From: a virus
Virus record (IMG/VR): IMGVR_UViG_3300047557_001530
Coordinates: 32,001 to 96,000 of that record
DNA: 64,000 bases
Strand: one strand, 5' to 3'
A program made the position numbers and the translations under genes. Under the pieces are notes generated by a model, which was not told where the DNA came from, did not search any database, and saw only the letters and a list, made by a program, of their open reading frames with translations. Numbering within the stretch: position 1 is the stretch's first letter; every line of letters begins with the position of its first letter. Of this stretch, positions 22,212 to 58,476 are shown piece by piece.

Positions 22212-23023
22212 TGTTAGGTAATCATTTTTATAACGAGGCGATACGAAAAACGGTAGTCGGCTTCGGAACACTATTCAATAATATCGAAGTTCAAAGGAAA
22301 GATCCTCAGACTAAAGAAGTCATTGAGGTTCAGAAAGTTCCTCTTGCTTACGGACCAAAGGATAAGTTTATTGCTCGTATCGAGCAAAACATAGATCCTA
22401 CTCCAGGAGCACCATATGAGAATATGAGAATTCCTCGTATGTATTTTGAAATGAAAGGAATTAATTATGATGGATCAAGAAAAGTAAGTCCTATTCAAAA
22501 ATACAAAAATGTTATTGCAGACAATGGGAATGAAATAAGGGTGCAGTATGTTCCTGTTCCTTACAATGTTGATTTTGAACTTGGCGTTCTTGTCAAATCA
22601 CAAGATGATGGGCTGCAGATTGTTGAGCAGATTCTACCATACTTTCAACCAAATTTCAACATCACTGTCAATTTTATTCCAGAAATGGATGAAAAGAAAG
22701 ATGTTGCTATCGTAATGAATAGTGTTGATCTTGATGATGCTTGGGACGGTGAGTATGCCAGCCGAAGATCTATTATTTGGACTTTTCAGTTTACTGCTAA
22801 GTCATACATTTATGGTCCCTTTAATCAGGCTGACATCATTCGTAAAGCTATTATTTACGAAACAGTTGGTGATCTTGATCAAGGAAAGCGTAATGCTAGA
22901 TTTACATATTCTCCGCAGGCATTACAAGATTATAATGAAGATGGTGTAATTAATCAAGCGGATGATCCGTTTGTAACTGCAGACGATGATTTTGGATTTA
23001 ACGGAACTATTGATCTACTATGA
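22211..23023 (+). CDS. gp15: Tail sheath stabiliser/terminator
   Basis: HFYNEAIRKTVVGFGTLFNNI, VPLAYGPK, QIVEQILPYFQP. Confidence 0.95.
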   Translation: MLGNHFYNEAIRKTVVGFGTLFNNIEVQRKDPQTKEVIEVQKVPLAYGPKDKFIARIEQNIDPTPGAPYENMRIPRMYFEMKGINYDGSRKVSPIQKYKNVIADNGNEIRVQYVPVPYNVDFELGVLVKSQDDGLQIVEQILPYFQPNFNITVNFIPEMDEKKDVAIVMNSVDLDDAWDGEYASRRSIIWTFQFTAKSYIYGPFNQADIIRKAIIYETVGDLDQGKRNARFTYSPQALQDYNEDGVINQADDPFVTADDDFGFNGTIDLL

Positions 23024-56819: not shown

Positions 56820-57032
56820 ATGAAAAGTTTTAAACAACTAAGACAAGAAGTAACTCAAGAGTTTTATCTTCAAAAAGAAATTTTTCAAGAAGGTGATTAT
56901 ATTATGAATGTTAATACTGGACAGAAAGGCAAAATTATTCGTCCAGGAGTTAATTATGTAATTGCTGTAACGGAAGATAATCAAATGTTTCGTGCTTGGG
57001 TAAAAGATATTCGTGAAGTAAACGTTTCCTAA
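56820..57032 (+). CDS. Small SH3-like protein with an N-terminus resembling a capsid-targeting sequence
   Basis: 70 aa, MKSFKQLRQE...FQEGDYI...GKIIRPGVNY; late promoter at about 56798. Confidence 0.65.
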   Translation: MKSFKQLRQEVTQEFYLQKEIFQEGDYIMNVNTGQKGKIIRPGVNYVIAVTEDNQMFRAWVKDIREVNVS

Positions 57033-57069
57033 ACATAAATAAATTAAGGAAATCATATATACTTTACAA

Positions 57070-57981
57070 ATGGAACGACAAAGAGCAACGACCCAACTAG
57101 CACATTATGACGATTTTTCTAAAGCATTGATTGAGTCGTCAGTCAGATATCTTGGCGAAGAAGGAATTCCTTCATTGCAAAAGAAAGGTAATGAAGATGA
57201 TTTCTCAAAGAAAGATCCTAAAGCAAAAGCAGCTCCTGCTGACCCAGCAATCAATATTGCTGCTGGCACTGGCACAAAACAATCTCATGGTGCAGAGATT
57301 GAATATACTACAGTTCGTGCCAAGAACGTACAGCGTGAAGAAGTAGAAAAGGAAGACGAGAGTAAAGCTGAAGAAGAAAAAGAAAAGAAGATGAGCAAGA
57401 CTGCCAAGGAAAAGCATGAGAAGGCAGAAGACAAGAAAGAAAAGGAAATGAAGGAAACCTACGAGTTAGAACTGGATGGCAATACTTACATCTTTGAGAA
57501 AAAGATGGATGGTAAGGATGACAATGGTTTCACGTCATGTTGGAAAGGATACAAGAAAGTTGGCACCAAAATGAAGGGTGGCAAAGAAGTTAATAATTGT
57601 GTTAAAGCAGGTTATGAACCAATTGGTGAATTAGTGCTTGATGAAAAAGCCCCCGCTGGGGCTAAGTTTGAAAGAATGGTTAAACATATTAAGAAGAGCT
57701 ATTCTAAAGATGGTTTAACTGATAAAGAAAAGGGTATTGCTTACGCTACTGCATGGAAGCAAAAGAATAAAGAACAGAAAGAAGAGTTTGATTTAACTGA
57801 AAAGAAACTTGATGCAGTAGGAAAGGAAGATAAAGATATTGATAATGATGGTGATCATGATAAGTCAGATAAGTATCTTTTAAATCGTCGTAAAACAGTA
57901 GGTAAAATTCTTGCTGCCAAGAAAAAAGTTAATGAAATGATTGCTTGGGAACAGGAGATTATCGCTGAAAAAAAGAACTGA
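57070..57981 (+). CDS. Charged modular protein, probably capsid-internal
   Basis: 303 aa, K/E-rich. Modules CWKGY...NNCVK, APAGAKFERMVKHIK...AYATAWK and DIDNDGDHDKSD separated by (L/I)xE sites. Confidence 0.65.
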   Translation: MERQRATTQLAHYDDFSKALIESSVRYLGEEGIPSLQKKGNEDDFSKKDPKAKAAPADPAINIAAGTGTKQSHGAEIEYTTVRAKNVQREEVEKEDESKAEEEKEKKMSKTAKEKHEKAEDKKEKEMKETYELELDGNTYIFEKKMDGKDDNGFTSCWKGYKKVGTKMKGGKEVNNCVKAGYEPIGELVLDEKAPAGAKFERMVKHIKKSYSKDGLTDKEKGIAYATAWKQKNKEQKEEFDLTEKKLDAVGKEDKDIDNDGDHDKSDKYLLNRRKTVGKILAAKKKVNEMIAWEQEIIAEKKN

Positions 57982-58007
57982 AGGCATCCACTGTAGAAGT
58001 GATGCCT
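57969..58007 (+). other. Candidate -1 programmed ribosomal frameshift signal
   Basis: In-frame A_AAA_AAG (57969-57975), 6-nt spacer, stem aggcat-c-cact/agtg-atgcct; the -1 frame is open for 51 codons to TAG 58128-58130. Confidence 0.65.
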
Positions 58008-58140
58008 GAAATTCCAAATAGTCCTGAAGACGGAGAAAGCTCTAAGAAGAATAAAAAGTACATCGGTAGAGCAGTAAACACACAGAAAAAAGATAAGCTA
58101 AATATTACGGGGTCCCCTCGATCAATTTAGGAGCAAAATT

Positions 58141-58311
58141 ATGAAAGTATTTTTAGGCGTAGCACAAAAAGTTGTAGAGCATTTCATGGCTAGCCGTGAA
58201 GTCAAGGAGTTTGTTATTCATCTTCTTGAGCGTTATGCTGCAACAACCGACAATGATGTTGATAACATGGTTGTCGTAATGGTTAAGAAGGCTCTTCTTC
58301 GTGAAGAGTGA
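58141..58311 (+). CDS. Small hypothetical protein; not in the ORF track
   Basis: 56 aa MKVFLGVAQK...YAATTDNDVD...LLREE; SD aggag; CTAAATA at 58098. Confidence 0.7.
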   Translation: MKVFLGVAQKVVEHFMASREVKEFVIHLLERYAATTDNDVDNMVVVMVKKALLREE

Positions 58312-58463
58312 TGGAATGTTTCTTAGGAAACATTTTAGCTGACATATTACTTTTACTTTTACTTGCCCTTTCCGAATGGATGGGGCACAATAAAAATATA
58401 AAAGAAAATAGTATCTACGATTGGATACATACTAAACTTAAAAAAATTGTAAGGGGAGACTAA
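58311..58463 (+). CDS. Small membrane protein, possibly holin-like; not in the ORF track
   Basis: 50 aa MECFLGNILADILLFTLLALSEWMG...KLKKIVRGD: hydrophobic N-terminus, basic C-terminus, coupled start. Confidence 0.55.
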   Translation: MECFLGNILADILLLLLLALSEWMGHNKNIKENSIYDWIHTKLKKIVRGD

Positions 58464-58476
58464 CTCCCCTTTTTTT
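58451..58476 (+). terminator. Rho-independent terminator
   Basis: aaggggag-actaa-ctcccctt followed by a T run and then ATAAATA. Confidence 0.85.

Follow-up and report, generated by a model that had tools for sequence, protein, structure and literature searches.

Does the gene at positions 57,070 to 57,981 of this cyanophage DNA end in a single protein product, or do some of the ribosomes that reach its stop codon change frame and go on to make a longer one? The gene lies in a stretch of 64,000 nt, here called the window, taken from a 127.6-kb IMG/VR virus record (37% GC); the window is most closely related to T4-like cyanophages in the Kyanoviridae family. The 3' end of its ORF (hereafter the body) reads GCT GAA AAA AAG AAC TGA, and an earlier note on this DNA had proposed that a -1 ribosomal frameshift at this point adds a tail of 51 aa. 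This proposal is strongly supported by comparative sequence evidence, and on that evidence we regard a programmed -1 ribosomal frameshift at the slippery heptamer A_AAA_AAG, giving forms of 303 and 353 aa from one gene, as very probable. The longer form is predicted to join residues 1-302 of the body to the 51 residues of the tail across the junction ...AEKK-ELKAST.... The features of the locus are collected in Table 1.

Table 1. Features of the body/tail locus, in positions of the window
Feature	Positions	Strand	Remarks
Late-promoter-like box CATAAATA	57034..57041	+	28 nt 5' of body ATG; putative function
Body ORF	57070..57981	+	303 aa; phrog_4359; S-PM2 gp145 / Syn1_163 family
SD-like GGAG	57954..57957	+	11 nt 5' of heptamer; codon choice against background
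-1-frame TGA	57966..57968	+	closes -1 frame directly 5' of heptamer
Slippery heptamer A_AAA_AAG	57969..57975	+	in frame, X_XXY_YYZ register
-1-frame extension (tail)	57975..58130	+	51 codons (57975-58127) plus TAG 58128-58130
Zero-frame stop TGA	57979..57981	+	one codon 3' of heptamer
Stem-loop	57982..58007	+	begins 6 nt past heptamer; 3' arm contains ATG 58002
Tail-internal ATG	58002..58004	+	in hairpin 3' arm; rival start codon

Three parts of this arrangement had already been described in the earlier note and were recovered here: the in-frame heptamer at the end of the ORF, a bulged 10-bp stem-loop 6 nt further on, and a -1 frame open for 51 codons up to the SD of the next gene (a GGAG at 58131, after the tail stop, followed by that gene's ATG at 58141). 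The hairpin has a stem of 7 bp and 3 bp, separated by a bulged C and capped by a 5-nt loop, with a folding energy of -13.4 kcal/mol versus -4.7 +/- 2.0 for dinucleotide shuffles (z -4.4). The GGAG upstream of the heptamer had been overlooked in the note; with it, the full three-part signal of the dnaX kind (GGAG at -11, heptamer and hairpin) is present in the window and in most relatives. Since the -1 frame is closed by a TGA just before the heptamer, the change of frame from body to tail must fall within 13 nt, and the heptamer lies inside this overlap. The heptamer by itself was rejected as evidence. It is not enriched in the window, where AAAAAAG occurs 30 times versus 36 copies expected, so that the significance of the site comes from its conservation and not from the motif.

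To follow that conservation the comparison was built from the body gene, because the window tail is too short and too divergent for tblastn, which matched S-CAM1 only when the tail was searched against isolate phages. Protein-guided searches of IMG/VR gave about 30 distinct homologous loci of 32-90% identity, nearly all of which have the heptamer in frame at the end of the gene and a -1 frame that stays open for 40-97 codons. The zero-frame stop of the relatives, which may be TGA, TAA or TAG, follows 0-1 codons past the heptamer, and their tails show a motif VEVMPEI, then an acidic stretch, then a basic stretch. The same arrangement is found in the cultured phages S-PM2, S-RIM32, S-CAM1, Syn1, S-H9-2, Sf-CH11, Sf-FR1, Sf-CH3 and S-CAM3, those with assigned taxonomy covering six genera. 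A search with a compound pattern, in which GGAG, 11 nt, the heptamer, 11-23 nt and codons for E-V-M-P follow one another, matched 103 IMG/VR stretches. Pooling IMG/VR contigs and cultured cyanomyoviruses gave 120 loci, which reduce to 83 distinct cassettes, most of them gathered by selecting for the heptamer through the pattern search or a filter. Conservation in related cyanophages had been named as a check in the earlier note, and heptamer and open -1 frame are kept across this set: the 83 distinct cassettes have an in-frame heptamer separated from the stop by 0-1 codons, with one outlier at 3 codons (L145, probably a chance match of the pattern), each with an open -1 tail bearing a VEVMPEI-type motif, and the overlap of the frames is mostly 10-25 nt. 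Sequence comparison thereby establishes both the signal and the open -1 frame across these phages.

Two departures from the usual layout were seen. The heptamer is absent from S-CAM4 (L127, 1200-1320) and from L012/L021 (near 2212), where a tail-like ORF has an ATG of its own in an ATGA overlap with the stop; the module can evidently be made separately. These ORFs have an N-terminus of the form MK[ST]FK, resembling that of a 70-aa ORF upstream of the body gene in the window. It is also similar to the leader that targets T4 internal proteins to the capsid, a likeness we treat as a lead only. In L088 (~2040-2080) the frame is broken in an A run that lies ahead of the normal C-terminus, and the usual ...REIEEEKK end and the heptamer are found in another frame; the break may be either a sequencing indel or a real mutation.

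The alternative that fares best, at a low probability, holds that body and tail are two genes and the heptamer is incidental, the tail being a free peptide of 42-43 aa started at the ATG at 58002 or the GTG at 57999, one route to this being termination at the TGA 21 nt upstream followed by reinitiation. An ATG does stand at the conserved tail Met in 80/83 cassettes, GenBank records and PHROGs keep the tail as a separate ORF, and the tail-like ORF of S-CAM4 and L012/L021 is separately started. However, three relatives (L082, L085 and L093/L094) have CTT (Leu) in place of the tail Met, and their intact, conserved tails of 50-53 codons contain no ATG, GTG or TTG anywhere. On sequence comparison these tails depend on the shift for their expression. 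In the window the hairpin's 3' arm contains the ATG, and no SD is suitably spaced from this codon, the sole SD-like sequence (GAGG/GAAG) ending 1-2 nt from it.

A further argument against a separate start is provided by coding constraint in the codons that precede the tail Met, where variation falls almost solely at third positions of the -1 frame. For the V-E-V codons, entropies at -1-frame positions 1/2/3 are 0.59/0/1.58, 0/0/1.0 and 0.59/0/1.89, which is the pattern of a frame that is already being translated ahead of the sole plausible start. Purifying selection on the tail is likewise indicated by the entropy analysis of the relatives, and a constrained as well as open -1 frame is thus established by comparison. 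The suggestion in the earlier note that a start at GTG or ATG at about 57999-58002 might explain the downstream frame is contradicted by the three tails that lack a start and by this constraint ahead of the ATG. Two genes would also leave codon choice around the slip site and the GGAG at -11 unexplained. All 35 of the distinct sequences examined (35/35) have the codons xxA AAA AAG at this point, while elsewhere in these genes Lys is encoded almost equally often by AAA (51%) and AAG (49%). The Glu codon within the upstream GGAG is always GAG, against a frequency of only 27% among the Glu codons of these genes, and the preceding codon always ends in G even though its residue varies (Q/K/M/R). 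Given the ATG in 80/83 cassettes, independent initiation may occur in addition to frameshifting.

The elements flanking the heptamer are conserved to different degrees. GGAG is found 11 nt 5' of the heptamer in 24/31 relatives, the S-PM2 group having AAGGAGG at 7-8 nt instead and the most distant group (L122-L124) having no upstream SD-like element. On the 3' side, the mean folding energy of 45-nt windows over 31 relatives has one sharp minimum, -11.4 versus a background of -5.4 +/- 1.4 kcal/mol, in windows that start 3-6 nt past the heptamer, and it is gone at +9; a few relatives, S-PM2 included, fold weakly past the heptamer. Compensatory changes in the stem, which the earlier note had named as a check on the hairpin, are borne out in a sister subgroup and not in the subgroup of the window itself. 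Covariation in the latter was not significant, and it is uninformative there because the pairs are nearly invariant. In the sister subgroup (26 distinct sequences) a 10-bp stem begins 6 nt past the heptamer, with its 5' arm in the same place and its partner in the D-G-A codons ~30 nt further on. This stem has 89% paired cells versus 82% in shuffles (0/500) and 16 double-change cells versus 7.1 in shuffles (0/500), with GC/CG and AU/UA swaps at synonymous positions in both arms. The 3' partner of the stem therefore differs between subgroups, and the conserved feature is a stem starting ~6 nt past the slip site and not one particular hairpin. Searches with Rfam covariance models gave no relevant family at E values up to 10, and the element is analogous, not homologous, to the Rfam frameshift families.

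These flanking elements also bear on a second alternative, very unlikely in our judgement, by which RNA polymerase would add one A within the A7 run and so give the same fusion by transcriptional slippage. The window does have seven consecutive A (57968-57974), and one extra A would put the tail in frame. Bacterial transcriptional slippage, however, normally needs runs of about nine or more, several relatives have six A only (L085, GGA AAA AAG; L122-L124, TCA AAA AAG), and the G after the run is invariant. In addition, a spaced GGAG and a hairpin at +6 are ribosome-directed and are not needed for slippage by polymerase. That the layout is a homopolymer assembly indel in one true ORF, or that the tail is a dead, decaying remnant, is scarcely credible: the run does lie in a metagenome-assembled record and L088 has an apparent indel upstream, but the two-frame layout recurs in 83 distinct cassettes from independent assemblies and finished isolates including S-PM2, which excludes the assembly indel raised in the earlier note, the tail is under purifying selection, and comparison of the tail with longer proteins found no natural in-frame body-tail fusion, which is weak evidence.

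Programmed ribosomal frameshifting can be set out in terms of dnaX and IS3-type signals, whose behaviour is established and on which the proposed mechanism is modelled; by this analogy we infer how slippage would proceed, what each stimulator would contribute and what would set the ratio of the products, and any function of the tail is putative. A ribosome with AAA in the P site and AAG in the A site would slip back one base onto AAA AAA, the two tRNA-Lys slipping in tandem from AAA AAG to AAA AAA. The slip would be favoured by the hairpin at the mRNA entrance, beginning 6 nt downstream, and by base pairing between the GGAG at -11 and the anti-SD of 16S rRNA, and the adjacent zero-frame stop may perhaps be a further aid. 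An unslipped ribosome would read AAC and stop, giving 303 aa, and a slipped one would read GAA CTG AAG onward and add 51 residues, giving 353 aa. Slipping or not slipping at one site would in this way yield two C-terminal isoforms per gene, in a ratio set by the RNA signal. The efficiency of A_AAA_AAG in E. coli is due to a single tRNA-Lys(UUU); no tRNA-Lys is encoded in the phage's own 127.6-kb record.

The closest parallel in design is E. coli dnaX, where tau and gamma are produced at A_AAA_AAG with an SD-like element ~10 nt upstream and a stem-loop ~6 nt downstream. The heptamer and the three-part design are the same and the spacings nearly equal (GGAG at 11 nt and hairpin at 6 nt here). 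The marks of a dnaX-type cassette, namely a heptamer within the frame overlap, a constrained -1 frame, structure 5-9 nt downstream and an SD-like element 10-14 nt upstream, are all found at this locus. However, there is no homology in sequence or structure, the gene is unrelated and the host here is a cyanobacterium. The outcome also differs, since on dnaX a ribosome that shifts meets a stop almost immediately and its product is the shorter one, whereas here the shift would extend the protein by 51 residues. In this respect the locus is more like orfA-orfB of the IS3 family (IS911, IS150), in which A_AAA_AAG with a downstream structure, and sometimes an upstream SD, gives a C-terminally extended fusion, and in which the downstream frame is likewise without a good start of its own. 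Unlike these elements, body and tail are not part of a mobile element and have no transposase domain, and the added part is only ~50 residues. The lambda-type tail chaperone G/GT is a conserved phage -1 frameshift with a fixed ratio of short to long product, and it often goes unannotated. Body and tail resemble it as a conserved phage -1 frameshift that would give short and long forms. They differ from it in protein family and heptamer, have no chaperone match in PHROGs or Pfam, and have a replication/tRNA cluster on one side and a head gene on the other instead of lying between tail tube and tape-measure genes.

What protein would carry the extension? The body has a conserved N-terminal part of ~80 aa, followed by Lys/Glu-rich linkers and small modules and then by a C-terminal helix. 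Alignment of the window with its relatives shows the protein to be a mosaic, with Lys/Glu-rich linkers that are very variable in length, and the family has a Cys-flanked loop CWKGYK...NCVK and a DxDxDG-type acidic loop (DIDNDGDHDKSD). An AlphaFold2 model of the body from a 26-sequence alignment has a mean pLDDT of 49 and a pTM of 0.17, with helix 266-302 alone confident; this helix runs into the slip site. In PHROGs the body matches only phrog_4359, for which no function is given, and the tail matches phrog_11250. Pfam gave no match for either the window body or the window tail, so that searches of these two databases yielded no function for body or tail, and a sequence search of the PDB with the S-PM2 tail and a body profile as queries found no relatives.

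The earlier note had taken the body for a virion protein of the T4-like internal type, and this part of its reading is not supported: no family match gives such a function, and no structural flag is attached to the orthologues. The protein begins MERQR and not with an MK[ST][FY]-type leader. In the proteomics-linked table of Sullivan et al. 2010 (PMC3037559), whose proteomes are not exhaustive, the orthologues from S-PM2 and Syn1 (T4-GC 842/843 and 1080/1081) are not marked as structural, and the orthology clustering of 2010 put the S-PM2 and Syn1 copies in separate singleton clusters (PMC3037559). The box CATAAATA fits the cyanomyovirus late-promoter consensus NATAAATA quoted in PMC2984593. 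Its position 28 nt before the body ATG, with a head gene nearby, makes late expression of the body gene plausible, and box and head gene only hint at a late or virion role of the protein. Within the window, 19/20 copies of ATAAATA are on the + strand, with a total count not above chance, and copies stand before the ORFs at 56820, 57070 and 58522; this strand bias is consistent with use as a late-promoter core on the coding strand. A literature search on DUF3008, DUF6321 and S-PM2 late transcription found nothing usable.

Upstream of the body gene are a DnaB-like helicase, MazG, tRNA-Ser, tRNA-Ala and the 70-aa ORF mentioned above, and downstream of body and tail are two small ORFs, a terminator (58451-58471), a late promoter TATAAATA at 58476 and the head-protein gene. 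The 70-aa ORF (56820-57032) begins MKSFKQLRQE and matches phrog_4808, labelled 'ribonucleotide reductase alpha subunit / NrdB'. This NrdB-type label is apparently an error copied from one annotation to the next. Other phages have the domain as a fusion with a cytidyltransferase (phrog_395). In S-PM2, Syn1, S-CAM4, Sf-CH11, Sf-CH3 and S-CAM3 the overlap of the 70-aa ORF with the body gene is always 26 nt; in the window the ORF ends 37 nt short of the body gene.

Some of the small modules occur on either side of the proposed frameshift. Residues 186-234 of the window body share 66% identity (E 3e-19) with the -1-frame ORF of Sf-CH11, annotated in GenBank as DUF6321, so that the DUF6321-like module of the window is in the body and not in the tail. 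The tails of S-PM2 and S-RIM32 match DUF3008 (PF11450) at 27 bits versus a cutoff of 24, and in L089 and its kin this DUF3008 module is part of the zero-frame body instead (54% identity, E 2e-18). These matches across frames indicate that the same modules are body in one phage and tail in another, which speaks for body and tail being parts of a single protein. From this exchange between frames we infer that the tail is probably a further small module in a protein that is modular and largely disordered. Considerably more tentative is the wider idea that the frameshift acts as a stoichiometry switch through the movement of modules between frames, and that recoding is a general, multi-locus strategy of T4-like cyanophages; we regard this as possible and rather doubtful.

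A scan of the 127.6-kb record for ORFs that have an A/T-type heptamer at their end and a long -1 ORF beyond it returned only three sites, one of which is the body gene. The second, at genome position 116169 (~66663 on the scale of the window and outside it), is the site of a peptidase-lysozyme endolysin, where an in-frame A_AAA_AAG directly adjoins the stop (0 codons between them) and a 158-codon -1 ORF starts like a lysozyme. At the third, position 22555, an in-frame TTTAAAG lies near the end of a 61-codon stop-to-stop ORF and a 122-codon -1 ORF follows; by eye, this ORF resembles a baseplate (gp25-like) protein, and the site more likely marks the normal start of a gene than a recoding event. 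Our search of the literature found no paper linking cyanophages to a frameshift in the body gene, and none of ten GenBank records inspected joins the two ORFs. The mechanism is classical, and its instance in the body gene appears to be undescribed.

If the frameshift is real, ORFs now listed as 'hypothetical protein' (S-PM2p146, Syn1_164, S-CAM1 SXBG_00149 and others) would be the C-terminal extension of the preceding gene, and in some phages the extension would be the only way in which the -1 frame can be expressed. The body gene would be a second dnaX-type site in this genome, beside the endolysin site, and would support multi-locus ribosomal recoding in the abundant T4-like cyanophages of marine and fresh waters. 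It would also offer a clean natural test of SD-like and hairpin stimulators on cyanobacterial ribosomes. Should the more doubtful idea of a stoichiometry switch be true, DUF3008, the DUF6321-like module and a basic KKxKKY segment would have moved between a body that is always made and a tail that is sometimes made, and lineages would tune the fraction of molecules bearing each module. Were recoding indeed multi-locus, it would mean that cyanobacterial ribosomes respond to the full signal of SD, heptamer and hairpin.
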